A DNA stretch of 64,000 bases, taken from assembly GCA_964016885.1 (NCBI GenBank), contig OZ024753.1, positions 34,286,001-34,350,000 of the forward strand, read 5' to 3'. The stretch comes from Eledone cirrhosa (taxonomy: Eukaryota). Below are positions 6,396 through 54,398 of this stretch, piece after piece (position 1 is the stretch's first letter; each line of letters begins with the position of its first letter). Made by a program: the position numbers and the translations under genes. The notes beneath the pieces were generated by a model. That model was not told the origin of the DNA. It saw only the letters and a program-made list of their open reading frames with translations, and did no database searches.

Positions 6396-6619
6396 ATATA
6401 TGTACGTAAAATTTAAACAGAAATAACAACCCAATCGGTACAGTATATGGAAGGAGTATATTAGGTTAATATTTGATAAAGCAGATGTATGTATATATAT
6501 ATATGTATGTATGTATGTGTGTGTATGTTGATATTGAAATGCTGTAGATTTTCAAGTTTTCACTGATAAAATGATATCTTTTAACTTTTTTCAGATGGTT
6601 TGGCACTTTGGTTGGAGGA

Positions 6620-9600
6620 ATGGAGGATACAAGTTCCCCACAAGTTTTTTACCCCAATAATACATTAACGATAGCAATCCAACCCTCTGCTAGTATGCCG
6701 AGCAACCCTCAGCCCAATATGCTGCAATCCACGCAGACATATACAACAATGCGCCAGGCAACAGTACCAACTGAGCAGATTTTTAATTCTCAAAGTCAGT
6801 CTTCTGCAACAAGAACTAACAGTCGTGCCAGTAATGGATTTGAGCTATCCCGTTTACCAGGACCTTATGCCAATGGTATTAATGTCGGTTCTGTTGCCAA
6901 TTTTTCAACTGCAGATGTTAACCAAATCATTACACCTGGAAAACAGTCATATATAACAACAGGATTACCAAATATCACCAGTTTGAGTGATCCAATCCAC
7001 TTCCTTCCTTCAACAACTCTAAATACCTGTGCCCCAGGATCCTTCATAGAGAAGATTGAGCGTTTACCAAGCTTTAGTACAATTGTTGCCTCAGCAGCTT
7101 CCAGCAACCCTATGATAGGTTTACAGTGTCAATTCCCCAATGTTGCACAGTCTTCAATCGATCAGCTAACATCCACATCCACTACATCATTGCCTGTCCA
7201 GACCAACAACACTAACGCCACCATGCTGACAACTACCAACATTCCTGTTTCCAGCACGCCATCGCAAGTTGACAGCTTCCAGTCTGTTTCACCTAATTTC
7301 ACTAACTACTATGCTGGTCGTAACACACAGCAACAGCTACACCAAACTGTGATCCAGCATCTCCCTGCTGGAACATCAAAGGTGATGACTTCACAGGGTC
7401 CTGTCACTGATGCGACAGTATCTCAACTGTCATGTTCACCTTCTTTGTCTACAAGCCCTTCTCAATCTCCAGTATCAGTTTCACCCCATTACCAAAATAA
7501 TACTAAAGCTAGATCTTCTTCTTCTGTTGTCTCTTTGTCTGTATGCATGGGTGGTCAGATGAGCTCGAATGTAACCAGTGAAGACTGTCTGACAAAGGCA
7601 TCAAAAATGTCCCATGGTAAAATAACTATGGAACATCCAGATAATTCTGTTAGCAAAAACAAAAACTCAAAATCTGATAAGCTAGGTGAAATTTGTGAGC
7701 AGAATATTTCTAAGTTAAAATGTAAATTCTCTCAGCCATCTTTACAACAGCAGTCTACAATGTCTTCAAACACTGTTCACCAAATATCTGCTGGTAACCT
7801 CAATAAAATGATAGAGAAAACCTGCAAACAAACTCAGAAGATTGCTATATCTGACCAGGTTTCAAAACCTTGCACGAGAAACTCAGTTAAAAATAGTGCG
7901 GCCAAAAAGGAAATTGTCATTGTAGCACCATCACAGTTAACCATGGTGGCAAAGCCTGATACGACACCACTTTATGTGGATGCCACTGGTCAAGCATCTG
8001 TAATGGCTAACCAAAATAACAGTATTGAAAAATCTAAAGGAGTCCAGTTTTTTGTGATGGGTGCACTGGAAGGAAAAGCTACATGTATGGATAACTTTCC
8101 ATATCATGACACTCCTCCGGAAATGGAATCTGCCATTGCTGATCTTCCGCCAACATTTGACCGACAACCTACTGTTGATGGCATCTTGATGAAATCTCAT
8201 GCAATGCCGATTTCCTTTGATCTACTGAGTAGGGAGCAGCTTGAATTTGTATCATGTGACAGTGAGAAAGTGAAGCAAGAGCCATCGGAAAAAAGAGTGG
8301 ATGATTCTCAGAGTCAACCAGCAGACTTTCAACTTCTGCTTCAACAGCAGCAGCAACAGCTAACTCTGCAGCAATCTGTGCAACAAATCCAAGCTGTGCA
8401 GCAATCTCAACAGGTATCATTACAGCCAGCAGCACCACAAACACTTCAGCAGTTTCAGTCGTTTACACCAGAACAATTTCAAGGGACTCAGTTCCGACAA
8501 TTACAACCCCAGCAATCAGAATTTCAACAGATACAAACCCCTGGTCCACAGCAACAACAACAACCACAACAGCAGCCGCAACAGCAACAGCAACCACAAC
8601 CACAACCACAACCACAGCCGCAACAACAGGTGGTAGCCCAGCCCCAACCTCAGTTGCAATTAAACATGTTAATATTTGCAGATGCACAGACACAAATACA
8701 ACAACAGCAGCAGGATAATTTAGCGCAGTTTACACAGCAAGTTCAACAAGCATCTCAGCAACTACAACAACAGCAGCAGCAGCAACAACAGCAACAACAA
8801 CAGCAGCAACAACAGCAGCAACAACAGCAACAACAACAGCAACAACAACAGCAGCAACAACAGCAACAACAACAGCAGCAACAGCCACAAACTCATATAT
8901 TACCACAGCAGATTCACCAACAGATACAACCAGCTCCTGGTCAACAGCAACCCCAAGTTGCCGGTACAGTTGTTACTGTTCAACAGCCCCTTCTCTCCCC
9001 ATGTCCGCAAATTAACCCCACTCTTCCTATTGAAACATCGCCAAGTAACCCCCGTAAAAGCCCTCGTCAGAAACAGGCGTTGACTTTCATGGAATCTGCA
9101 GCGAAAGCAGTCGTGACAACAACAGTTGTTGACAGTGCCACCTTTGTGACTGTTTCAATTCGGAATAATCGCAAGGTGCCACTGACAGTGCAAGCAAAAA
9201 CTAACACCACAAACAGCAACCTTGCATCCGGAGGTTTACCGTCTGTGTCTCAATGGTCAGGGGAGGCAACTCCTGTTTCAGTGAAGCGAAAACATTCTGA
9301 CTGCAGTGATAATGCTGACTCCGAAGGCAGCGATGTAGATAGTGGTGAGGACAAAAGAAATGATAGTGGGGATTTATCCCTGGAGGAAAACCTAGAATCT
9401 AATTTGTACACACTTAAACCTCCGTCTGTTCTACCCAACCTCAGCACTCTTGGTTCCCCAGCACCTCCACCCACTCCTGCTACTCTAGCAGAGGATAACA
9501 TTGAAACTAAGGACATCAAAGAAGAATTAGATCGGACAGAAGTGGAGATTCGCATTGATGATTCCCAGTGTGTTCTCCACGGTGAGCAGAAGCGATGGCA

Positions 9601-10132
9601 GTGTTGTCATTGTCCAAAATCTTATACCACAAAACATAATTTGGTGACCCATATTCTTGACCATCAGGGTATTAAGCCCCACTTATGTATGATTTGTCAT
9701 AAGTATTTCAAGCAGTTGAGCCATCTAAATACACACATGCTGACCCATGAGAACATTAAGCCTCATGTGTGTCAAATATGTAAGAAAGGTTTCACACAAA
9801 TCTCTCACTTAAAACGGCATCAAGCTGTACACTTAGACAGCAAACCTCACTTGTGTGATAAATGTAATCGTGGCTTTGCTTACCCCAGCGAGCTACGGGT
9901 GCACAAAGAGAAGCATGATCTTGGTCGTGACAAATGTCACGACTGCGGAGAGGACTTTTCTAGTCAGCGACTCCTCCGACAGCATCAGGTGAAACATGAG
10001 CACCGAGAAGACTTAACTTGTAAAATATGCACAAAAATATTCCGATATCCAAGTCAATTAAAGGATCATATGATTACTCATTCCGGTACAAGACCCCATA
10101 TTTGTCCTGAGTGTGGAATGGACTTCATGAAG
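6620..10132 (+). CDS. ZNF710: ZNF366/ZNF710-like C2H2 zinc-finger protein, first coding exon (exon starts at 6595; S/T/Q/P-rich N-terminus, fingers 1-6 and first half of finger 7)
   Basis: Acceptor ttttttcag|A6595; first in-frame ATG at 6620; donor AAG|gtaaga at 10132 (phase 0). RIDDSQ..QKRWQCCHCPKSYTTKHNLVTHILDHQGIKPH..FTQISHLKRH..GFAYPSEL matches my recollection of the ZNF366/ZNF710 finger array. True start codon is uncertain. Confidence 0.88.
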
Positions 10133-10320
10133 GTAAGATTTCAGCTTGGCTTATTTTTATTGCTTTACTACTGTATATATGAAATTTGAAATGTGTACAT
10201 GACAACGTAAATGACCATAAAACATTTATAAAGGTCTATTTTGCTGTTCTAGATGACCTGTAAAGGCCTTGGACACTGTCCTCTGGTCCTATCAAGTAAA
10301 AAAAAAAAATGACTGCTTAA

Positions 10321-14915: not shown

Positions 14916-15157
14916 TTTCTTGGATAACATAGATGAAGGCATGGCTGAGAGGTTAAGGAGTTTGTTTAGCTACCTTTTGATTCTGGGTTCAGTCCTACTG
15001 TATAGCACCTTGGATGCCTGTCTATATCAAGCGTTAAACTAATATATAACACTTTGTGTTTTTGTTTTTTCTTATGATTGAAAGCGGGGCTGGAGGAGGA
15101 AGTAGATGTTAAATGACAACGATGATGACATATATATACACACACACGCACACACAC

Positions 15158-15204
<47 letters not shown>

Positions 15205-15276
15205 GCACACACATACATACATGACATATATATATACACACGCACATATTATATATATATTTATATATATATATAT

Positions 15277-16649
15277 GTCTCCTCTGTGTCACTTTTGAGC
15301 TGACTTTTGGGATGCTCCCATACAGCTCTGAGTTTTTCATCCTCAGTGTATACTGATTAATGTTCAAAGCCATCCTCAGCATTCTCGTGTAGCACCCATC
15401 CACCATCTGAGTGAGTTTCTTGGTCAGTGTCCAAGTCTCAGACCCGTACAGCAGCACAGACTCCACTACAGCAACAAAGAGACGGATTTTCAGGTCTTTA
15501 CGAAGGTCCGATTTCCACACCGATCTCAAGCTGTGGCACACTGCCCAGGCTTTGCTCTTCCTCTCAACCACATCATCTTCTGTATTCCAAATCTTTGCTC
15601 CCAAATACAGGAAGCCCTCAACCAATTCTAGCGGCTTCCCGCCTACATTAGTGATCCTCTCTGGCTTCTCAACATTCTCTACCAGATATTTTATTTTAGT
15701 CTCATTCATTCTCAGCCCCACACTCATCGACACAGTCTCAACCTCCCGCATCAAATCCTCTGCCTCCTTCACTGTATTTGTCACCAAAACTATGTCGTCG
15801 GCAAATTCAGCATCCGATACCTTTTTCGCCTTAACTCTCCTGCTCTGAGCCGATGCTACAGTAAAGCCAGAGTCCTGGTGTTTCTCCAGTGCAAGGCGCA
15901 TACAATAGTCCACTACGATGATAAAAAGGTAGGGAGCCAATGTATCTCCCTGGAGCACTCCAGCCAGTATCTCAAAGAACTCTGTCATCCCATCAGGTGT
16001 AATGACTTGGGCTTTGGTATTGGTGTAGAGCAGTGATATCAGGTCCACTATCTTCTTGGGGATTCCATAAGCCTGTAAGATCTTCATCAGTGAAAACCAT
16101 GACCGCAGGAAGGCACTTTGCTCTAGCTCCCTCTAATATCCTCCTCAGCATCAGGATGTGACTGGTGGTTGATCTTCCCGCTCTGAAGCCGTTCTGGTTG
16201 TCCCTGAGCTTCTTCTCCATCTCAGGCTGGATCCTGTTAAGAATCATCCTGTTGAGGGTCTTTGCCACAAGTGACGTCAGTGAGATCCCCCTGTAGTTGT
16301 TGGTGTTAGAGAGATCTCCCTTCTTTGGCGCTGGGACGATGTTACTGATCCTCCACTGATTCGGGGCAACTCCTTTCTCCAGTGCCCGGTTACAGAACCC
16401 CAGGATGATATCATCAAAATCACATCTCTTCATCACCTCTGATGCCACTCCATCTTCTCTATGAGCCTTGCCCTCTTACATGGACACACTAGAAGAGGAA
16501 GACCAAGGTTAACGTATGTTGATGCCCTAAGGACAGATATTGGTCTGTTGGAGACGCAGGACATGGCAGCGATAATGAGGGACAGAGACCGCTGGAGAGA
16601 ACTCGTCCATGGATCTCGGGAATTTTACCTGCCTTAGATAGATAGATAG
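15277..16649. mobile_element. RTE-clade LINE fragment with inverted 5' part (RT on - strand 15277-16477; 3' end on + strand 16478-16649)
   Basis: - strand: KKGDLSNTNNYRGISL, QNGFRAGRS, GVLQGDTLAPYLF, FADD, LLYGSETW, with a frameshifting deletion. + strand: HGHTRRGRPRLTYVD..DRDRWR..* plus a (GATA)n tail. Confidence 0.85.
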
Positions 16650-19160: not shown

Positions 19161-19500
19161 GAAGGCACATGGCTTAGTGGTTAGAGATTGGCCTAGCAAT
19201 CGAAAGGTCGTGAGTTCAATTTTTAGACCGGGTGATGTATTGTTTCCTTGATCAAGATACTTTATTTCACATTGCTCCAGTTTACTCAGCTGTAGAAATG
19301 AGATGATAGGGACTGGGGTCCCTATCATTCCACTGTAAAGTGGACGTGGAGGTGCCACGGGAAAAAAACCCCCACCACTCACTGTAAATAAGGTTGGTGT
19401 TAGGAAGGGCATCCAGCTGTAGAAATCAAGCCAGAATCAGTTCCCGTCCCACCCTTGCAAGCAGGGAAAAGCGGACGTAAAAATGAAATGAAATGAAATG
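19161..19500 (+). mobile_element. tRNA-derived CORE-type SINE with RTE-like tail (family 2)
   Basis: TGGCTTAGTGG A-box, GTTCAATT B-box, CORE-like TCCTTGA.CAAGA.ACTTTATTTCAC, RTE-shared 3' end; second full copy at 49564-49897. Confidence 0.75.
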
Positions 19501-19534
19501 ATATATACACACACATACATGATATATATATATA

Positions 19535-21158
19535 TAGCTTTTGTTGACTTGGAGAAAGCCTTCGACAGAGTCCCCTGTTCCATTATCTGGTGGGCTCTTA
19601 GAAAACTAGGTGTTGATGAATGGCTTGTGAGAGCTATACAAGCCATGTATAAAGAAACAGTCAGCAAGGTTAGAATTAACAACGAATATAGTGAAGAGTT
19701 TAGCGTAAAAGTTGGTGTTCATCAGGGCTCTGTTCTTAGCCCCCTAATATTTATTATTGCCCTACAGGCTATAACAGTGGAGTTCAAGACCGGCTGCCCA
19801 TGGGAACTCCTATACGCAGACGACCTGACACTCATAGCGGAATCAATGACCGAGCTAGAGAAGAAATTCCAAACATGGAAGCACGGCCTAGAATCAAAAG
19901 GCCTTAAAATTAACCTGGCTAAGACTAAAGTTCTAGTTTGTAGGAAGGAAAATAGGGCATCGGTCCCATCTGGGAAATAGCAATGCTCAGTGTGTAGGAA
20001 AGGCGTAGGTAGAAACTCCATTTTATGTCCCAAATGCAAAGTATGGGTGCATAAAAGATGTAGTGGGATCACAGGTAAGCTAACTAAGAACATAGATTTT
20101 ACATGTGGCCGGTGCTCTGGTGCAATAAGTAGCAGCAAGTGCCCACAAAATACTAGCTCTTTCAATTGCGCAGAGGGTTCTATAGAAATAGTGGACAGCT
20201 TCCGTTACCTGGGTGACAAAATCAGCAGTGGGGGAGGGTGCTCTGAAAGTACAGTAGCTAGAGTCAGAACTGGATGGAAAAAGTTCAGAGAGCTTATACC
20301 GCTATTAGCTGCTAAAGGGTTCTCCCTAAAAATGAAAGGCAGGTTGTACGATGCCTGCATACGAACAGCAATGTTGCATGGCAGTGAGACCTGAGCATTG
20401 TCTACAGAGGATATACGCAGACTAGAGAGGAACGAAGCTTGCATGCTCCGCTGGATGTGTAATAGTAATATACGTGAACGGCAAAGCATAAACGAACTAA
20501 GGGAAAAATTAGAAATAAGAGGGACCAGATGTTGTTTACTCGAGAGAAGGCTACGTTGGTATGGTCACGTGATGCGCATGAAAGACGACAGCTGTATAAA
20601 AAAGTGCAGGGCAATAAAGATAGACGGTAGCCACGGAGTAGGCAGACCCAGAAAAACCTGGGACGACCTGATAAATTCCGACCTCACACACTTACACCTC
20701 TCCAAGACAATGTCACTGGACCGAGATCTTTGGCAGTACTCAGTAATAGAGAAGACCCGCCTTACCTGAATTCAAAGTAAAACCTACTACAGTCAGTAGG
20801 CATCTCTAACAAAACACACCCCCGTCCCACCACTCCCACCCCATCCACACCGCCCCTTTCAATGTAAAGTTATGTTGGTGCCACAACATCCAGGCCGAAA
20901 CAAATGAGATCGTGTAGGTGTCACGACAAAAAAACACACAGTCCACGCTGTAATGTGGCCGTGTAGGCAACACGGTAAAAACCTCCCAGTCCCACACTGT
21001 AAATGTGGTTGGTGTTAGGAAGGGCATCCAGCCGTAGAAAACCCTCCAGACAGTCCTATGCGAGCAAGACAATCACTCTTGCCTCAAGTGGGAAAACTCC
21101 CGTCCAAACCCATGCAAGCGTGGAAAATGGACGTTAAACGATGATGATGATGATGATG
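19535..21158 (+). pseudogene. 5'-truncated RTE LINE reverse transcriptase with two nonsense codons
   Basis: FVDLEKAFD, GVHQGSVLSP, LYADD; Trp-to-stop at 19978 and 20392 relative to the neighbouring copy. Confidence 0.92.
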
Positions 21159-21279
21159 ATATATATATATATACACACACATACATGACATATATATATA
21201 TATATACACCCACATACATGATATATATATATATATACACACACATGATATATATATATATATACACACACATACACAT

Positions 21280-21313
<34 letters not shown>

Positions 21314-21563
21314 TACACATGATATATATATATATACACACACACATACACATGATATATATATATATATACACACACATATACATGATATATATATATA
21401 TATACACACACACATACATGACATATATATACACACACATACATGATATATATATATATATACACATACATGATATATATATATATATATATACACATAC
21501 ATGACATATATATATATATATACACATACATGACATATATATATATATATACACATACATGAC

Positions 21564-21598
<35 letters not shown>

Positions 21599-21658
21599 TG
21601 ACATATATACATATACACACACACACATACATGACATATATATACACACATACATGAC

Positions 21659-21692
<34 letters not shown>

Positions 21693-21763
21693 ATGACATA
21701 TATATATATATATATACACACATACATGACATATATATATATATATATACACACATACATGAC

Positions 21764-21794
<31 letters not shown>

Positions 21795-21879
21795 TACATG
21801 ACATATATATATACACACATACATGACATATATATATACACACACATACATGACATATATATATATACACACACACATA

Positions 21880-23620
21880 CATGAAGGTCATGAAGGTCAC
21901 AGAAAAAGTAATAGCGCAACTAATCAGAGAGAGAATTGATCTAGATGAAATGCAGTTCGGATTTGTGTCAGGCAAAAGTACCACAGACGCTCTTTTCATT
22001 GTACGACAACTACAGGAGAAGTACCTAGCTAAAAGTAAACCCCTATACTTAGCTTTTGTTGACTTGGAGAAAGCCTTCGACAGAGTCCCCCGTTCCATTA
22101 TCTGGTGGGCTCTTAGAAAACTAGGTGTTGACGAATGGCTTGTGAGAGCTATACAAGCCATGTATAAAGAAACAGTCAGCAAGATTAGAATTAACAACGA
22201 ATATAGTGAAGAGTTTAGCGTAAACGTTGGTGTCCATCAGGGCTCTGTTCTTAGCCCCCTACTATTTATTATTGCCCTACAGGCTATAACAGAGGAGTTC
22301 AAGACAGGCTGCCCATGGGAACTCCTATACGCAGACGACCTGACACTCATAGCGGAATCAATGACCGAGCTAGAGAAGAAATTCCAAACATGGAAGCACG
22401 GCCTAGAATCAAAAGGCCTTAAAATTAACCTGGCTAAGACTAAAGTTCTAGTTTGTAGGAAAGAAAATAAGGCGGCGGTCCCTTCCGGGAAATGGCCATG
22501 CTCGGTGTGTAGGAAAGGCGTAGGTAGAAACTCCATTTTATGTCCCAAATGCAAAGTATGGGTGCATAAAAGATGTAGTGGGATCACAGGTAAGCTAACT
22601 AAGAACATAGATTTTACATGTGGCCGGTGCTCTGGTGCAATAAGTAGCAGCAAGTGCCCACAAAATACTAGCTCTTTCAATTGCGCAGAGGGTTCTATAG
22701 AAATAGTGGACAGCTTCCGTTACCTGGGTGACAAAATCAGCAGTGGGGGAGGGTGCTCTGAAAGTACAGTAGCTAGAGTCAGAACTGGATGGAAAAAGTT
22801 CAGAGAGCTTATACCACTATTAGCCGCTAAAGGGTTCTCCCTAAAAATGAAAGGCAGGTTATATGATGCCTGCATACAAACAGCAATGTTGCATGGCAGT
22901 GAGACCTGGGCATTGTGTGCAGAGGATATACGCAGACTAGAGAGGAACGAAGCTTGCATGCTCCGCTGGATGTGTAATAGTAATATACGTGAACGGCTAA
23001 GCATAAATGAACTAAGGAAAAAATTAGAAATAAGAGGGATCAGATGTTGTTTACTCGAGAGAAGGCTACGTTGGTATGGTCACGTGATGCGCATGAAAGA
23101 CGACAGCTGTATAAAAAAGTGCAGGGCAATAAAGATAGACGGTAGCCACGGAGTAGGCAGACCCAGAAAAACCTGGGACGACATGATACATTCCGACCTC
23201 ACACGCTTACACCTCTCCAAGACAATGTCACTGGACCGAGACCTTTGGCAGTACTCAGTAGGCATCTCTAACAAAACACACCCCCGTCACACCACCCCCA
23301 ACCCATCCACACCGCCCCTTACAATGTAAAGTTATGTTGGTGCCACACCATCCAGGCCGAAACAAATGAGATTGTGTAGGTGTCACGACAAAAAACACAC
23401 AGTCCACGCTGTAATGTGGCCGTGTAGGCAACACGGTAAAAACCTCCCAGCCCCACACTGTAAATGTGGTTGGTGTTAGGAAGGGCATCCAGCTGTAGAA
23501 GACCTGCCAGACAGTCCTATGCGAGCAAGACAACCACTCTTGCCTCAAGTGGGAAAACCCCCGTCCAAACCCATGCAAGCGTGGAACACGGACGTTAAAC
23601 GTTGATGATGATGATGATGA
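21880..23620 (+). mobile_element. 5'-truncated RTE LINE with open RT frame (ORF 21881-23329)
   Basis: QFGFVSGKSTTDA, FVDLEKAFD, YADD, Cys-rich insert, MLHGSETW; no endonuclease; native stop lost by a deletion at ~23260. Confidence 0.93.
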
Positions 23621-23804: not shown

Positions 23805-25091
23805 CAGGGTGCGGACGATATTTGTTCGCAAGATTACTGTCTAGGAAAAAATAACAGTAGTTTTATTTTTTAAGATATATTTATCAAACTTGGGTCAGTT
23901 TGTCTTCATGACTTGTTCTTTCGATCTCACTCGATAAACACGCCATTGGCTTTGATGACGGCCTCAAGGCGGCGTCGGAACCGGCTACAGGCCTTCGTCA
24001 CTGTCCCCCGACTTAGGACCCTAAAGGCACTTGTGATCCTGGCCTTCAGATCGTCTTTCGTATTGCAGCTAGATCTGTTGGTGTCTCGTTCCACTGCGCC
24101 CCACACAAAGAAGTCGAGGGGGTGGGAGGCTAGATGTCAGGTGAAGTGTGGTCAACGAAGTTCTCTGACAGCCAGGCTTAGGTCTTCCGGCTGGTATGGC
24201 AGGGCGCTGAGTTTTGCTGCCACACGTACGGCCTACCTGCAGATACCTGGTGGATCCAGGGCTTTACTACCTCGCTCAGAATGCGGATGTAGCCATCAGT
24301 GTTCAGCTTGAGGCCCTCAGAGAAGAAGTGAGGTGGCATGACGTCACCTTGACTGCTGACGACACCTAAGACCAATGTTGTCGTTGGCAACTTTATCTGC
24401 ATGACTCTGGGCATGTCTTTGGATGAGACAGCGAGCCACCTGTTGTTCTGGGAGTTGATCTTCTGGTCTTGGCAGAAGTTTTTCTCGTCGGAGAAAAAAC
24501 ACAGCATGTCTGGCTCCAGTGGGTGTTTCAACTTGTTGATCAGCTTCTTTGCGCGTTTGTCGCTTTTCTTGCATCGCCTTTGACAGAAATTGTCCTTTCC
24601 TCATCTTGTAGGAAACATAGCGAATGTCTTCATGTACCACCAGCCTAATGAGCTTTTCATCCACACCTTTCTCCCTTGCAATGGCATACATCGACTTGCT
24701 AGGTTCATTGTTGATGATATCCTGAACTTCAGTGACGAACTCGGGTGTTCTGAAGGTGTCGGATCGTCGATCATGTGTTTTCCTCTCTGATGTTGCTTCG
24801 TAGTCGAATCCTGAATCTTCCAATTCCTTTCTGACCTTTTCCACCATTCTCCTGCTGACGCTGAGAAAGTCTGAAATTTCCTTATTTGTCCTCCCGGCAC
24901 AGATTCCAAGAAGAACTCCGTGTCTCTTCCACAAATTTGGAGGTTCAAAATTATTCATAATCAATTATTCTGAAAATAAATAGTGGAAATATAGTCACTG
25001 TTTTTATGAAGACAAGAGTGACAACGGAAGTAAAACAAATTTGCATAAAATTAGCAGTTGAAAATTGCGAACAAATATCGTCCACACCCTG
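23805..25091 (-). mobile_element. Full-length, inactivated Tc1/mariner-superfamily transposon (probably DD37D/maT-like)
   Basis: 27-bp TIRs CAGGGTG(C/T)GGACGATATTTGTTCGCAA, TA duplications. Frameshifted transposase ~24960-23915 with HTH region, FFSDEKNF, WQQNSAPCH (catalytic D to N) and PLDFFVWG. Confidence 0.92.
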
Positions 25092-31738: not shown

Positions 31739-31798
31739 TATATATTTATAAAATTGATTAAATAATTTTTTTATCTTTTTTTTTTTAATTATTTTCAG

Positions 31799-32391
31799 GA
31801 AATCTCAATAGACATAAGAAAGTGAAACATGGTCTTAATGAAACTACGGAAAGTATGGAGGAAGATGCTGTGAATTTTCTCACAGAGCGATGCCGTGACT
31901 CTGAAGGTGACAAAGACTCCAGTGTTGAAAAATTAGGTGACAATGAAGGAACGTCTAGTGGTCGGAAACAACGGAAAAATACAAAGAGCGGTCAGAAAAA
32001 GCGAGCGAAGACAGCTTCGAAAGCCAGAGCATCAAAAAGTCTCTCTGCTATTGTTAGGAATTGTAGTGTTGTAGATAGCAGCGATGCTGCAGCAAATGAA
32101 CTGAAGGATGATGTTTCTACTGTAGCTTTGATGACTGTTGATGACTTGGTGCCTACTGTAGCCAGTATTTCTACTGCTAACTGCAGCAGCAGCAACAACA
32201 ACAACAACAACAGCAACAACAACAACAACAACAGCAACAACAACAGCAACAACAACAGCAACAGCAACATCAACAACAACAGCAGCAACCTCATCACTGA
32301 CAACAACAGTAACAGCGACATTACTTGCAGTGTGAGTGTCGTTAGCGGCGTCAACAACATGAACAACAACAGCAACAACAACAACAACAAC

Positions 32392-32429
<38 letters not shown>

Positions 32430-33063
32430 CAGTAGCAGTAGCAGCAACGGCAACAACTGTGCTGGCGGCAAGAGCTTTCAAGAGGAAGAGAGAGCGAGGA
32501 GAGAGGCAGAGGAGGAAGTGGAAGCTGATGACGAGGAAGAGGATGAGGATGAAGACTGTGTAGCCGATGAGGATGGTGATGGTGATGACGAAGCTGAAGA
32601 CGAGGTGGAGGAGACAGCTGCTGAAGTCGAAGTGGCCGCGCAGCAACAGTTGATAGGCGTGGCCGCCGCCGCTGCCGCTGCCGAAGCACAAGAAGAAGAA
32701 GAAGAGGAAGAGGAGGAGGAGGACGATGACAATGAAAACGAAGAAGAAGACGAGGAAGAAGAAGAAGAGGAGGAGGAGGTGGAAGAGGTGGTGGAGGAGG
32801 AGGAGAATGATGATGACGTTGATGATGGTGACAAGGCTGGAGAAGGAGGAGAAGGTGGAGGAGGAGGAGTGGGAAGAGGAGGAGGAGGAGTAGGAAGAGG
32901 AGGAGGAGGAGGAGGCAGGACTGGACAACCACCGGCCGTGCGCATGGTGAGCCCACGGGAAAATACGCAGATGGTAAGTGGAACGAAAGAATGCAAGGCC
33001 AATAGTATTGTGACTAAGTACTTCCGGAACAATTCCGACCGTCGCTCGGAGGGCAGCAGCAGC

Positions 33064-33097
<34 letters not shown>

Positions 33098-33369
33098 GCA
33101 GCAGCAGCAGCAGCAAACGTCACGACGATCTCAGGAGCAAAGTGTCGCTGATGCAGGACACCTACCTGTTCACATCTACGGACAGTGACTCCGACAGCAG
33201 CAGTGCCAGTAACAATAACACAGGCTTCTCGGATAGCGAAAAGGATGACGGGGCCAAAGATGACCACACAGATGCTGATTGGCTGCCTTCCCGCACCAAG
33301 AGACGTCGTCGCTGTCCCACAACCAGCAGGGGAGCATCGGCAACACAAACGAAGTCGAAAGAAGGTTGA
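31799..33369 (+). CDS. ZNF710: ZNF366/ZNF710-like gene, last coding exon (end of finger 11; acidic, low-complexity C-terminus)
   Basis: Polypyrimidine tract plus ttttcag|GA AAT CTC..: (G)NLNRHKKVKHG completes finger 11; frame open to TGA at 33367-33369; poly-N/S/E/G tracts. Confidence 0.9.
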
Positions 33370-44640: not shown

Positions 44641-44820
44641 AAAGAGTTAGGACCCCGACGGCTGAGCTCCGGCCGTTTCGACAGCTAGATCCGAACTAGC
44701 TGTCGAAACGGCCGGAGCTCAGCCGTCGGGGTCTTGACTCTTTTCCTATTACCCACTCTACTACCCTAAGTATCGAGTACTCTGGTGCGTTATGGTCCAC
44801 CTGGTTCCTTACCACATTTT

Positions 44821-44822
<2 letters not shown>
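44641..44822. mobile_element. Family B fold-back cassette (3' half of HHR only)
   Basis: Inverted arms 44641-44687 and 44696-44743, plus ~80-nt tail; (TA)n flanks. Confidence 0.7.
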
Positions 44823-44864
<42 letters not shown>

Positions 44865-47612: not shown

Positions 47613-47996
47613 ATGAATAAAGTTAGTCCCTCATCAGTGATCTTCCAACCATCATTGGTATTTCATCGCTTTAAAGACCATATACCTCCGGTTGGTGCGA
47701 GCAACGGCTAAAAAAAGTCGTTGGGACACGTAAATAAAGCGGGCACGAGAGTGTAAACAAACAAAGATGGTGAAGCAACGAAAAGTGAGGAAGAACGAGT
47801 CAAGTCCCAAATTTCCATGAATATAAGTTCGGTGAAATCGTGAACGAGAGAGAATAAAGACCATCAAACCTGGTTGGAATGTGAGCAAGGAAGGAATTCC
47901 GTACAGGTCTAACGGGAGGAAGAAGGAATCTAGTCTGTGAATTCGGTGAACATAAGTTCTGTGAAATCGTAGACGAGAGAGAGAAAAAAGGCGAAC

Positions 47997-47997
<1 letters not shown>
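47613..47997 (-). mobile_element. (TA)n-embedded repeat, family F, with HHR core segments
   Basis: Homologous to 61380-61730 (+). Confidence 0.6.
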
Positions 47998-48027
<30 letters not shown>

Positions 48028-48029
48028 TA

Positions 48030-48579
48030 TATTTTGAGAATAAACTCTCAGTCGTTTACAATAATTAAGCTCCAGGAAGGGGCTCTTCCGAGCAGTTAAA
48101 TACATTTAAAATATATGATAAACACGAAATGTGTTTATATTGCAACAGACAAAGTTAGCTATTAATGAAATAAACTAATTAAAGTGAATACAATTTGTCT
48201 GTCTCGATATAAGTCAATAAAGACAAGCTTATATTGGCAACGGCCATGATTCCTGGACAGATTTAAATTTCAAAATTCAAACCTGTTCTGTAGACGAATT
48301 TGAATCTCGAAACCCAAATAAGTTTCGCAACGGTGGAATGTGAATTGAAAAATAAAGAGAATCGAAATGGAATAGAAATAAAAGAGTGAAATATCCAAAT
48401 CTTCTGTGCTTATCAACAGGAATCCAGTAAAATTAGTATATCTCAATATAAGCTTGTCTTTATTGACTTATATCGAGACAGACAAATTGTATTCACTTTA
48501 ATTAGTTTATTTCATTAATAGCTAACTTTGTCTGTTGCAATATAAACACATTTCGTGTTTATCATATATTTTAAATGTA
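48030..48579. mobile_element. Family C fold-back cassette
   Basis: ~136-bp inverted arms at 48101-48236 and 48444-48579; HHR in the spacer; one-sided tail 48030-48100; (TA)n flanks. Confidence 0.72.
48248..48424 (-). ncRNA. Extended type I hammerhead, U3:A8 core variant
   Basis: - strand: GAUUCCUG-UUGAUAA-GCA(~77 nt)UGC-GAAAC(~63 nt)GUC/CAGGAAUC; 8-bp stem I. Confidence 0.72.
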
Positions 48580-48754
48580 TATATATATATATGTAGAAGT
48601 TATATTTAATTTGTTCGGATACAACAAGCACATATTTTTATAACTGATATAAAGCACTCAACAAATTATTGGAGTAAAAATACGATATATTAACAAATGG
48701 AAACTATATTTATAAAACCATATTTATTTCAATATATATATATATATATATATA

Positions 48755-48968
48755 TAGGAAAATGTATGACCCTGACGGCAGAGCTCAAGCCGTTTCGACG
48801 GCTATTTATGGACTAAATTCTGACTGAATTTAGTCCAGAAATAGCCGTGGAAACGGCTTGAGCTCTGCCTTCGGGGTCATACATTTTCCTATTACCCACT
48901 CTACTACCCTAAGTATTGAGTACTCTGGTGCGTTATGGTTCATCTGGTTCCTTACCATAACTCCTTCG
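48755..48968. mobile_element. Family B fold-back cassette
   Basis: Arms 48755-48820 and 48826-48892, plus tail. Confidence 0.72.
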
Positions 48969-49037
<69 letters not shown>

Positions 49038-49243
49038 GTAATGAGTTCTTTTACAATGAAAATAGCTCAAAGAAAGAAATATTTCTGAGCCGTGTAAAAC
49101 ATTTAAATATAAATTAATATATATGATGAAACACAAATACCAACATATCTGCATTTATATTGCAAAAGAAATTTAGTTAGTAAACCCTGTGCGTTAAACA
49201 GTCTTTTAAAATATTTAGAAGTGAAGCATATCAATTTGTTCGG

Positions 49244-49371
49244 GATGTTTACTGAAGAGAGCTGGACAAGATATCCTTACACTTATTTATCTCGAAACAT
49301 TTTTGGATTTTAAAGTTTAAACTTATCTACGGAACAGGTTTGATTTTGAAATTTAAATGTGTCTAAACATC
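49244..49371 (+). ncRNA. Extended type I hammerhead (family C relative, canonical core)
   Basis: GAUGUUUA-CUGAAGA-GAG(29 nt)CUC-GAAACAU(..)GUGUC/UAAACAUC; 8-bp stem I, GUC triplet; lies within cassette ~49032-49465. Confidence 0.78.
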
Positions 49372-49462
49372 ACGGCCATTTGGCAATACTGTTTGTCTTT
49401 GTTGATTTATTATTTTAAATCGATATAGGCAGGCTGTAATATTATAATTAGTATATTTCATT

Positions 49463-49897
<435 letters not shown>

Positions 49898-50266
49898 ATA
49901 TATAAGTTAAAACAATGAAATAAAAATTCAAGTCATTAGGAATATACTTCACTGCTTTACGATCTTTTCTAGGTGACAATAATACATCGTACGCATATTT
50001 CGTTATCGATCTATGTAAGGTTAGTTACAAAATATCAAATAAGGAATATATTTACTTACGTGTATATTGTCAGCCGTTGTCAAAAGCTATATATATATAT
50101 ATATCTGTTCACATGCCAACACAAGAGAAAGAATGAAGTGTTCATTCTACTGACATGGCTATAAAATTGAGGCTTGTTTGCATAATTGCAAACGAATCGA
50201 ATGTTATTAATATTCGAAAAACTCAGATTACATTTATTGTATTCAGCCATGAGGAGCGAAAATGTT

Positions 50267-50318
<52 letters not shown>

Positions 50319-50323
<5 letters not shown>

Positions 50324-50641
50324 ATACTTTGAGAGGGTCATATTGCCAATAATAAACACACGCACCAGTTGCTTTCACTCCAATTTATTATAAATTAAAT
50401 TTATAAATTTAAGAATTTATAAATTTCCGGTTGGTTGGTTCCACAACCAGATGATTGTTAATATATTGTCAAAGTTCTTTCGTCACACATTCTGTGACCT
50501 CTTCACTGACTGGGGATTCTTTTCTTAGTTTTTGTGCCTCTCCTTTGTTCTGTCTTACGCCATCTTAGCGTAGGACAAGATGGCGTAGGACAGAACAAAG
50601 GAGAGGCACAATAAGATATCAGTGACTGATATCTTATTGTG
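50319..50641 (-). mobile_element. Family A cassette with mutated HHR (50468-50511) and serial terminal hairpins
   Basis: Homologous to 141-395; core reads GUGAAGA (C3 to G). Confidence 0.7.
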
Positions 50642-50800
50642 TCTTTTAATTGTGATTTTAAGATGTGGGTTCGTGTCTCATGTACGTCAATATTGGACCT
50701 TTTTTCCATTCAGAGGGTTTTTTAAAAATCCCAACTAACTGACTTATTCCATGTAGTCAAATACGGCGTAAGCACATGTTACTACCCCCCCCCCCCCCCC

Positions 50801-50881
<81 letters not shown>

Positions 50882-50884
<3 letters not shown>

Positions 50885-51027
50885 GGAATTGTGGTAAGGA
50901 ACCAGATGGACCATAACGCACCAGAGTACTCAATACTTAGGGTAGTAGAGTGGGAAATAGGAAAAAGTATGACCCCGACGGCATAGCTGTCGCCGGCTTG
51001 AGCTCTGCCGTCGGGGTCATACTTTTT

Positions 51028-51031
<4 letters not shown>
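50882..51031. mobile_element. Family B fold-back cassette (reverse orientation)
   Basis: Long arm 50882-50986 (-), short arm 50994-51031 (+). Confidence 0.7.
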
Positions 51032-51102
<71 letters not shown>

Positions 51103-51176
51103 TGAAGTAAAAGTTAAATGGAAATATCCGAGAGTAAGAGCACTCAGTCCATAGGACGAGTTTAGTATAAATAATT

Positions 51177-51364
51177 GTTTCTACTTTAGGCACAAGGCGA
51201 GCAATTACCCAGTGCATTACTGGTACTTTATTTTATCGACCCCGTAAGGATGAAAGGCAAAGTCAAAGTCAACCTCGGCGGGATTTGAACTCAGATAGTA
51301 AAGGGACGTAACTATGCTGGAAAGCATGGCGTCCGACCCTCCATCGATACTGCCAATCCACCGC
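51177..51364 (-). mobile_element. Family-1 SINE with 20-bp TSD
   Basis: CGAGTTTAGTATAAATAATT at 51157-51176 and 51365-51384. Confidence 0.88.
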
Positions 51365-51399
51365 CGAGTTTAGTATAAATAATTATAACATTGACATAA

Positions 51400-51449
51400 A
51401 CAGGAACTCAAGTTTCGTTGGGTTCTGGGCCCCAATTTCTTCAGCCTGT
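51400..51449 (-). ncRNA. Minimal type I hammerhead (slightly decayed)
   Basis: - strand: ACAGG-CUGAAGA-aaUUGGG(gcccagaa)CCCAAc-GAA-ACU(ug)AGU-U/CCUGU. Confidence 0.65.
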
Positions 51450-51709
51450 CATCCTGAAGAAATTGGGGCCCAGAGAGGAGAGAGGGAGAATCAGTGATGG
51501 TGATGTGGTGGTTTGTTTACATCTACATCACTAATCTCTCCTATTGCAGCTTTATAAGTTCCAATAATAACTTCTGAAGCAACAATAGTTTCCTTTTCCT
51601 ATAGATTTATTTCCCCATAATTGTTTTTAATAATGCATATTTCTTTTAAAAATTTTGTAAAGATACGTTTTCAAATGTACAGATTACGGTAATCTTTATA
51701 AAATTAAAA

Positions 51710-51764
51710 TTATATATATATATATATATATACATTATGTATATATATATATATATATATTACA

Positions 51765-51803
<39 letters not shown>

Positions 51804-51960
51804 GTACATTATATATATTATATATATATATTATATATGTACATTATATATTATATATATATATATATATTATATATGTACATTATATATATATATATAT
51901 ATATATTATATATGTACATTATATATATTATATATATATATATATATTATATATGTACAT

Positions 51961-51994
<34 letters not shown>

Positions 51995-52218
51995 GTACAT
52001 TATATATATATATATATATATATTATATATGTACATTATATATATTATATATATATATATATATTATATATGTACATTATATATATATATATATATATAT
52101 TATATATGTACATTATATATATTATATATATATATATATGTACATTATATATATTATATATATATATATATGTACATTATATATATTATATATATATATA
52201 TATTATATATGTACATTA

Positions 52219-52257
<39 letters not shown>

Positions 52258-52312
52258 GTACATTATATATATATATTATATATATATATATATTATATAT
52301 GTACATTATATA

Positions 52313-52388
<76 letters not shown>

Positions 52389-52546
52389 GTACATTATATA
52401 TATATAATATATATATATATACATATACATTATATATGTACACTATATATATATAATATATATATATTATATATGTACATTATATATATATATATTATAT
52501 ATGTAAATTATATATATATTATATATATATATATATATATAATATA
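51710..52546. repeat. (TA)n-derived satellite with TATGTACATTA units
   Basis: Direct inspection. Confidence 0.9.
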
Positions 52547-52627
52547 GTCTATCCAGGAAGCTCCAACCGTTAAGGTTGTCTTTTTTCAGGCTATGTCAAT
52601 ATTTATTTATAAAACTAATCTGTATTG

Positions 52628-52693
52628 TATTTTATCTGATGAAAGCGCACCATAATTTGCCTTGGTGGCCCTTGAAATATGTATAATAAAATA
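52628..52693 (+). ncRNA. Minimal type I hammerhead (family D cassette 52547-52737)
   Basis: UAUUUUAU-CUGAUGA-AAGcGCACCA(10 nt)UGGUGgCcCUU-GAA-AUA(ug)UAU-A/AUAAAAUA; 8-bp stem I. Confidence 0.8.
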
Positions 52694-52731
52694 AATATGG
52701 TTTTATAAATATAGTTTCTATTTGTTAATAT

Positions 52732-52784
<53 letters not shown>

Positions 52785-52858
52785 GAAGCCTTTAAGAAGA
52801 TTTAACTTCTTTTTCCTGTCTTTTTATTCGTGTCGGATACATAAAAAATCCTTACTTT

Positions 52859-52892
<34 letters not shown>

Positions 52893-54398
52893 TATATATA
52901 TATATTTATATATTTATATATACATATATCTATATATATTTTATTATCTTTATTTATACATGCATGTATCATGCACACACACACATATGCATGTATATAT
53001 ACACACACGCGTATATTATACTTTTTTCCCCAGATATGCTTTCGAATGTGCAAATTGCGATTACATTAATAACATTACAGCATTAAAAAATTCTTTTTAT
53101 TGCTGTTGTGTTTCTTAATTGAGAAAGTGTAACGTTAAGGGCGGTAGATTGACAGTATCGTCCCTTTACGATCTGTGTTCGAATTCTACCAAAGTTAGTT
53201 TTACCTTTCATCCTTCCAGGGTCGATAAAATAAAGTACCAGTGTCGATAAAATAAAGTACTGGGGTTGATAAAATAAAGTACCAGTAACGTACTGGAGTC
53301 GATGTAAGCGACTTTCCTCTTCCCAAAAATTGTTGGCCTTGTGTCTCAATCAGAAATGATTATATTGAGCAATGTTCGATTAAAAGGTAATCATACAGGT
53401 AGGTAGCTTATTCCTCTACCGTTAATAGGAACAATTTATGAAACAGGTGATCCTAATGAAGCGAAAGCTAGGTTTACATTGGTGAAAGTAAAACCAAGAA
53501 CAGTCAAGATTGTTATAAAAATCAACTGTGAAACAAAATTATCAAGGTAGTGTATATGTTATACCATTTGGAAAAGAAAGAGTTTTCTAGATTTCGAGCA
53601 CAAAGCCTTTCTCAAGGGAAAGAACAACAAAATAACGATACTAGTAATAAAAATGAAAGAGATAGAAAAAAATCAAACACTTTGAATGTGTCATAGAACA
53701 GAAATTGTTTGCAAATGGCTAAACAGAAGTAAGTGAATACACAAAGGTAAGTAGGAGAAAAGGAAGATAAATAGAAGAGAAAAAGAGAGTGTGTGTATGT
53801 GTGTAAAGTGTGTGTGTGTGTGAAGGAGAGAGTGTGTATGTGTGAGAGAGTGAGAAAGTAAGAAATGGCTCTGTAGTAGAGAGACAGAGAACAAATAAGC
53901 AATGAACATCTTAATATAAAAAAAGAGTAAGTTTGTGTGACTACATCAGCAGTGTTTATATGTAGAAGATCCAGGGTGAAAGTATCAATGGAAAGGTAAT
54001 TGATTATTAATGTAGGCGGCAACAGACGTCCTCATATGAAGCACAGCGGAAAACGTGCTTCATTAGATAATTAAAACACGAAGTATTGAAGAAAATAAAA
54101 CCTGTCAAAGCTTTTGGTTGTGTGAATACATATTTTAGTTTGGTTACAGTTCTGTCCTTAAAATGACCTCAATATTTCTTTCTAATTTAGACACAAGGTC
54201 AGCTTCCTTTTTGCATTACATACACACACACGGATATATATATATATATATAGAGATATAAAAGATACAGAAGCGAAACCAACCAAACAGTGAGTGTGTT
54301 CTGTTATTATTTCTGGCAATATTATTACAACAATATGACCCTCCCCAAGTATAACAATATTTATTTCGACACACTATTTCATATCAAAAACCTCGCAA

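Follow-up and report, generated by a model that had tools for sequence, protein, structure and literature searches.

Two predicted type I hammerhead ribozymes of unusual architecture carried by truncated retrozyme-like insertions in Eledone cirrhosa

Two large hammerhead motifs in a TA-rich stretch

The window, a 64-kb stretch of Eledone cirrhosa DNA, carries exons of a glutamine-rich C2H2 zinc-finger gene at 6575-10189 and 31789-33369 (+), and at 49563-49890, 50532-50612, 14966-16475, 19492-23329 and 24178-24964 lie what we take to be a tRNA-like SINE head, which matches Rfam tRNA weakly, a long hairpin, fragments of LINE reverse transcriptase and a fragment of a mariner-like transposase. Scanned with a descriptor, the window gave three hammerhead sites only, namely a small PLE-type motif at 52628-52693 and two larger motifs, A and B:

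48248..48424 (-): hammerhead A, type I, with a U3:A8 core; predicted cut between 48256 and 48255
49244..49371 (+): hammerhead B, type I, with a canonical C3:G8 core; predicted cut after 49363

On re-reading the sequence, we find the coordinates, stems, cores and cut sites of both motifs to be those given by an earlier, sequence-only reading of this DNA. Motif A has an 8-bp stem I, the core UUGAUAA (48416-48410), an 83-nt domain II with a 77-nt loop on GCA/UGC, and GAAA followed by a 67-nt stem III and GUC, with C17 at 48256. Motif B has the core CUGAAGA (49252-49258), a 35-nt domain II with a 29-nt loop on GAG/CUC, and a 66-nt stem III, with C17 at 49363. The two motifs are 81% similar across 72 nt (E 3e-13), and the compensatory changes reported for stem I are present, with both sides altered in four of the eight pairs (pairs 4, 5, 6 and 8). 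Both have the type I arrangement of three helices around the core with stem I open, and the core follows CUGANGA / GAAA / UH, canonically in B and with U3:A8 in A. Folding z-scores are -2.76 for A and -2.78 for B, each matched by 2 of 200 shuffles. Stem II is missing from the nested minimum free energy (MFE) fold of copy A, where its pair probability is 0.00 and imposing it has a penalty of 4.4 kcal/mol. We predict, with moderate confidence, that both RNAs cut themselves after GUC. The expectation that standard models would pass over hammerheads with such large stems was borne out, as Rfam gives no match to A or B: there is no hammerhead at gathering score in the 64-kb window, none among the 56 matches at E<=5 in 47900-52900, and the small PLE hammerhead at 52628 is likewise missed.

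A non-coding repeat superfamily carries the motifs

The sequence-only reading overlooked that both motifs are passengers of a mobile repeat. A and B are independent truncated insertions from two subfamilies of one superfamily of non-coding repeats, whose copies number well above a thousand in this 3.0-Gb, microsatellite-rich genome. DNA searches gave at least 43 matches to A (from the best 40 of 1,238 candidates) and at least 42 to B (from the best 40 of 1,741), the full-length matches among those listed being 96-100% identical; the window copies are 98-99% identical to many dispersed copies. The exact core patterns occur 553 (A) and 657 (B) times in the genome, and the B 3' motif has 1,564 matches. 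Tandem arrays (5x526 nt and 2x556 nt, with a maximum of five units) give unit lengths of 556 nt for A and 526 nt for B, and a length of 518 nt is also seen; the units of A and B can be aligned end to end. The units code for no protein (longest ATG-initiated ORFs of 27 and 44 aa), and neither contains a single ORF with reverse transcriptase, CxCx5C linker and C-terminal GIY-YIG domain, the hallmark of an autonomous Hydra-clade PLE.

Further subfamilies were found through a common upstream motif, and 34 subfamily representatives were analysed. This 16-17-nt motif lies ∼110-140 nt 5' of stem I (for example L039:1393-1409) in all subfamilies and in a distant sister retrozyme family; it is also present in an unrelated repeat (L133, L137, L149), and its 17-nt count of 1,947 is therefore not a copy number. 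The sister family (L141, L388-L407; 1,704 first-look candidates) has mostly a U4C core, U-U at the stem II base and an AUA cleavage triplet, and among 19 of its copies no ORF is joined to the unit, the one match lying 700 nt off past other sequence.

Insertions are head-to-head and end in (TA)n

A and B are separate insertions within one TA-rich stretch, each with two arms:

48016..48443 (-): subfamily A insertion, arm 1; 428 nt, unit 1-409 at 99% (locus L001)
48444..48583 (+): subfamily A insertion, arm 2; inverted 140 nt, unit 189-328, 99% complementary
49029..49180 (-): subfamily B insertion, inverted arm; unit 224-376, to E2 in (TA)n
49180..49465 (+): subfamily B insertion, direct arm; unit 462-523 then 1-222

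Arm 1 of A is 5'-truncated ∼20 nt upstream of stem I and runs through the ribozyme to one of two 3' ends, E2 (unit 409), in (TA)n; arm 2 starts 19 nt downstream of the predicted cut and stops at the other, E1, also in (TA)n. The direct arm of B has lost its 3' part and adjoins (GA)n. We surveyed 58 A and 57 B sites, sampled by 3' motif in genome order, and at these 115 sites arms end at E1 or E2, ∼65-85 nt apart, mostly in (TA)n. Head-to-head pairs are present at 66 of the 115; both ends are canonical in 54 pairs, every one of which combines E1 with E2 (54/54), and in the other 12 one end is neither. TATATA follows 80 of 89 arms with E1/E2 ends in A and 67 of 85 in B, and in a check for target-site duplications (>4 bp) insertion ends were found to lie in (TA)n. 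With head-to-head 5'-truncated copies, one arm bearing a tail, and (TA)n as the target, the insertions are as expected of PLE mobilisation. The published PLE pattern is a truncated copy in inverted orientation, one arm of which carries a tail (PMC8557442, PMC3846280); the tail is explained by two reverse-transcription start sites, and both target strands are reported to be cleaved and extended (PMC11167929).

We think it likely that A and B represent type I hammerhead folds in truncated non-LTR retrozymes (∼510-600 nt), probably copied into (TA)n by Hydra-type PLE proteins, with RNA predicted to be cut after GUC. Read-through or tandem transcripts would be partly cut into unit or multi-unit RNAs, possibly circularised. 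A PLE protein would bind hairpins just 3' of E1 and E2, nick both (TA)n strands, and prime a cDNA at each of E1 and E2; these would stop randomly or near a cut site and be joined head to head.

Covariation and switches of the 3:8 core pair

Across the 34 representatives, 94.8% of cells are paired compared with 12-53% in slid controls, and both sides have changed in 13 of 39 pairs; a shuffle control of this 34-row covariation is inflated by relatedness. The proposal that stem I and core positions 3 and 8 covary holds in this alignment, with six of eight stem I pairs changing on both sides and 3:8 paired in all 34 (C-G in 16, U-A in 16, U-G in two), and G5, GAAA and U16.1-C17 are invariant (34/34). 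Among listed copies, all 100 of subfamily A have U3:A8, and C3:G8 is present in 94 of the 97 of subfamily B left once three chance matches were removed. Other lineages are mixed: one has C3:G8 in 48, U3:A8 in 27, U3-G8 in 23, C3-A8 in one and G3-G8 in one of 100 listed copies (hand count), so that U3-G8 constitutes an amplified subfamily, and a second has C3:G8 in 60, U3:A8 in 39 and U3-G8 in one of 100. At least two 3:8 switches are forced by well-supported branches of a tree of 38 rows built from the flanks only, which is unrooted because the sister family is alignable over just 16-19 nt, and from which the direction of switching is not read. A U3-G8 copy with a tip length of zero sits on the branch between the C-G and U-A states.

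Other core variants are amplified too, with U4A in 18 and U4C in 24 of the 100 listed rows of the first of these lineages and A6U in 16 of the 100 of the second (hand counts), and an A9U core is present in both the A and B subfamilies. The sequence-only reading had taken covariation as selection on an active ribozyme. Selection on the hammerhead fold is supported well beyond the two copies considered there, but strict selection for activity is not, because subfamilies with core changes expected to slow cleavage (U4A, U4C, A6U, A9U) have also spread.

Truncations cluster just 3' of the predicted cut

If templates are cut, reverse transcription running off the self-cleaved end could leave 5' truncations just 3' of the cut. 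Within 50 nt 3' of the predicted cut there are 41 of 172 truncations compared with 22.4 expected (p 8e-5; 2.1-fold per nucleotide at risk), for a window that was picked after seeing A and with two arms per site that are not independent. By subfamily, there are 24 versus 11.8 expected for A and 17 versus 10.5 for B (p 0.03, a weak replication). Truncations just 5' of the cut are depleted (nine, with 18.6 expected). The best pooled 50-nt window starts 2 nt from the cut, with 18 of 2,000 simulations as high, and for B alone the best window lies elsewhere. The excess fits run-off at the self-cleaved end, and it also fits stalling of the polymerase at stem I. Many arms cross intact ribozymes, so their templates must have been uncut, partly cut or circular.

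These patterns bear on what we regard as the most serious alternative, although an unlikely one: that the mobile element is the same, but the ribozyme is slow or dispensable, its fold being kept for RNA stability or PLE-protein binding, with cleavage playing a minor part in spread. The amplification of U4A, U4C, A6U, A9U and U3-G8 cores suits such a ribozyme, as do the many arms that run through at least one intact copy and a stem II of 3 bp only that is absent from the nested MFE of A. An Anolis PLE whose hammerhead is mutated is reported to insert normally in vitro (PMC11167929), and eight of nine predicted Xenopus retrozyme dimers reportedly did not cleave (bioRxiv 10.64898/2026.07.22.740005). 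A structural role alone accounts poorly, however, for a tertiary 3:8 pair that has switched at least twice with C3-A8 appearing once in 400 listed rows, for the invariance of G5, GAAA and U16.1-C17 in all 34 representatives, and for truncations that are depleted on one side of the cut and enriched on the other.

Stem III consists of a duplicated palindrome

Each stem III is built from two copies of a 37-nt unit that starts a little ahead of GAAAC and extends to GUC:

48257..48323 (-): stem III of A, 37-nt units in tandem, 24/37 identical, pairing with each other
49297..49362 (+): stem III of B, the same duplicated-unit hairpin

The units are identical at 22-24 of 37 positions in the window copies and at 30-32 of 37 in three other subfamilies, and Tandem Repeats Finder flags a 36-nt repeat in stem III. 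In the least diverged copies each unit is near-palindromic about a central UG, which allows unit 1 to pair with unit 2; this palindrome resembles the 8-nt palindromic stem III of the small PLE hammerhead at 52628-52693. Transitions are present in 15 of 16 pair-keeping columns compared with one of seven pair-breaking columns. Stem III of the sister family is short and unduplicated. Two copies with a single-unit stem III, L144 and L164, were considered as ancestors, but nest inside the duplicated forms in the tree and are thus read as deletions.

We infer that stem III arose by tandem duplication of the palindromic GAAAC-to-GUC unit. PLE hammerheads are thought to form their stem III helix by dimerising, and an engineered helix III that mimics the dimer allows cleavage as a monomer (PMC4209133). 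A natural duplication would have made such a dimer-mimicking helix in cis, in which case the ribozyme should work as a monomer.

A predicted pseudoknot joins the upstream flank to loop II

A helix is predicted between the 22 nt directly before stem I and the first ∼20 nt of loop II:

48425..48445 (-): pseudoknot flank strand F in A, pairing with 48406-48387
48387..48406 (-): predicted pseudoknot loop II strand X in A
49222..49243 (+): pseudoknot flank strand F in B, pairing with 49262-49281

The helix is predicted at -11.8 kcal/mol in A (shuffle p 0.003) and -12.0 kcal/mol in B (p 0.023), and beats shuffles (p<=0.05) in 32 of 40 copies. Of its three junction pairs, two are kept in 36 of the 40 and one in 37, with swaps; these three are the only pseudoknot pairs recovered by RNAalifold. 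The sister family, whose sequence is unrelated, has the same 18-nt spacing, and its helix beats shuffles in 17 of 19 copies, the best of which form near-perfect 19-20-bp helices. In both families there is no spacer between the helix and either stem I or stem II. Folding indicates that stem II of copy A is unstable without the helix; the truncation of this window copy retains just the flank strand. Because the helix overlaps none of stems I-III, we read it as a putative pseudoknot of ∼20 bp. It could hold stems I and II side by side, replacing the loop-loop contact, and loop II would be large because it houses the flank-pairing strand. The stem II and III insertions noted by the sequence-only reading are of the sizes it gave; the former can be explained as one strand of the predicted pseudoknot, the latter as a tandem duplication.

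The same helix could instead be an inhibitory alternative fold, a timer or off-switch that does not stabilise the ribozyme, although we consider this improbable. When B is folded as a circle, the helix takes the place of stems I and II, albeit in a program that draws no pseudoknots, and at ∼20 bp it far exceeds the 5-6-bp examples described in passages of PMC3088659. However, its nucleotides are separate from those of stems I-III, it abuts stems I and II without spacer in both families, and pseudoknots of this class, bridging stems I and II, are said in the same source to raise hammerhead activity (PMC3088659).

Hydra-type PLEs and the end hairpins

Two nearby features bear on the type of protein that may mobilise the units:

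52545..52737 (+): 3' fragment of a coding Hydra-type PLE family, containing the small hammerhead 52628-52693
48069..48093 (-): hairpin GCTC-loop-GAGC in A where the 'tail' begins, just 3' of E1

The PLE fragment is separate from A and B, and is a candidate for the type of partner they use. This small-hammerhead family (1,496 first-look candidates; a near-complete copy at L247) targets TA and has ORF pieces with a CxCx5C linker, an RWK-like motif and, at the C-terminus, a GIY-YIG-like endonuclease domain, on the basis of which it fits the Hydra clade as characterised in PMC8557442; a related piece at L059 has a Pfam GIY-YIG match below cut-off (E 6e-4). In the coding family, too, there are two ends, with a CTC-loop-GAG hairpin lying ∼10 nt or less 3' of each, and this hairpin follows the ends in every retrozyme subfamily inspected. 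That at 48069..48093 may be a signal for the PLE protein, and we infer that the superfamily could be mobilised in trans by Hydra-type PLE proteins, a link based on common layout and short hairpins, not alignable sequence. A tblastn search of sampled loci with six PLE protein pieces for an autonomous parent returned neighbouring elements, and among the loci with matches the ORF fragments at the six read by eye (L032, L043, L050, L058, L059 and L067) were judged to be separate insertions.

We note that all of the insertion hallmarks are PLE-like, that the survey covers a few hundred loci, and that PLE ORF fragments lie near several copies, such that the units might be no more than 3' ends (pLTRs) belonging to an autonomous PLE with an unsampled ORF. 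This is highly improbable: in arrays the tail joins the start of the next unit directly, without an ORF, and the ORF fragment at the six loci belongs to a separate element, being on the opposite strand, downstream, or split off by (TA)n or unrelated sequence. That the two ribozymes are a host-domesticated pair with a function at this locus, where both are intact and ∼15 kb past the last zinc-finger exon seen, can be set aside almost entirely, as both are near-identical (98-99%) to dispersed copies, truncated, and situated among other TA-targeted insertions.

Relationship to known retrozymes and PLEs

As probable non-autonomous retrozymes, A and B belong with elements already known. Tandem non-coding units with type I hammerheads are described as non-LTR retrozymes (PMC7229834, PMC7761336), and a PLE origin of retrozymes has been argued (bioRxiv 10.64898/2026.07.22.740005). 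As in the animal elements so described, the units here are tandem, non-coding and AT-rich, each with a type I hammerhead and a PLE connection, and the predicted circle is strongly self-paired (computed z of -4.7 and -5.2). At 510-600 nt they exceed the 170-400 nt given in PMC7229834, and are within the 51-972 nt given in bioRxiv 10.64898/2026.07.22.740005. They differ in having a 66-67-nt duplicated stem III and, where the others have contacts between loops 1 and 2, a long pseudoknot by prediction, and are known here from DNA alone. On the features compared, of which all but the narrower size range agree, the superfamily appears, with moderate confidence, to work like a retrozyme.

The PLE pLTR hammerheads described in PMC4209133 are similarly of type I, with a palindromic stem III and a U3-A8 variant, and a large helix III is known in fungal and protist PLEs; what differs is the natural dimer-mimicking helix formed by duplication, the lack of an ORF, and the amplified U3-G8 subfamily. 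Hydra-clade PLEs (PMC8557442; tail in PMC11167929 and PMC3846280) share (TA)n targeting, head-to-head truncated copies and a tail on one arm, whereas the elements here are non-autonomous, with a tail of 65-85 rather than 30-40 nt and strict E1+E2 pairing (54/54). A base-paired bridge between stems I and II is found in ∼40% of the hammerhead collection of PMC3088659, in passages of which it measures 5-6 bp compared with the predicted ∼20 bp here. Natural C3-G8 to U3-A8 covariation has been reported in hammerheads (PMC3088659), as has U3:A8 in Schistosoma PLE hammerheads with ∼1,300 matches (PMC4209133).

What has already been published comprises retrozymes, an origin of these from PLEs, and the U3:A8 variant of PLE hammerheads; what is distinctive here is the predicted architecture and the core-variant series. 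A literature search, which was incomplete and excluded figures, returned no report of the family, of a duplicated stem III or of a long flank pseudoknot in retrozymes; the structures (mussel and other) in the supplement of PMC7229834 may show a pseudoknot. We raise, tentatively and as somewhat less probable than its converse, the broader possibility that these are an animal subclass of hammerheads, so far unrecognised, in which a ∼20-bp pseudoknot between flank and loop II acts as a brace, and in one lineage of which duplication created a dimer helix within a single, monomer-active molecule, and that the genome records both the crossing of 3:8 between C-G and U-A via a mobile U-G form and, in the insertion stops, template self-cleavage in Penelope retrotransposition. 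If true, this would be a rarely seen record of both events. In vitro the hammerhead of PLEs looks dispensable; thousands of insertions with a spectrum of cores offer a genome-scale test of whether cleavage shapes them. The family also amounts to a natural set of hammerhead-core mutants, the 3:8 wobble intermediate among them; it provides short candidates for the cis signals through which Hydra-type PLEs may mobilise it, and a ribozyme architecture that escapes Rfam models.

Other elements at TA tracts

Several further elements lie close to the insertions. The small-hammerhead PLE family, or one close to it, is represented by a 3' end and tail at ∼48590-48737 (-), abutting arm 2 of A. A TA-flanked foldback of ∼130 nt with an 80-nt extension on one side is present at 48758-48966 and 50887-51030; it is found also at 44741-44823, L091 and L220, and resembles a PLE-mobilised element of two arms plus tail. 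The segment 47610-47995 is purine-rich, between TA tracts, and contains a 77-nt direct repeat (spacing 129) and a minus-strand CUGAUGA near 47635; it is possibly another truncated element. Finally, at least eight further hammerhead families with a small stem III adjoin sampled loci, several with CTC-loop-GAG after the first 3' end.
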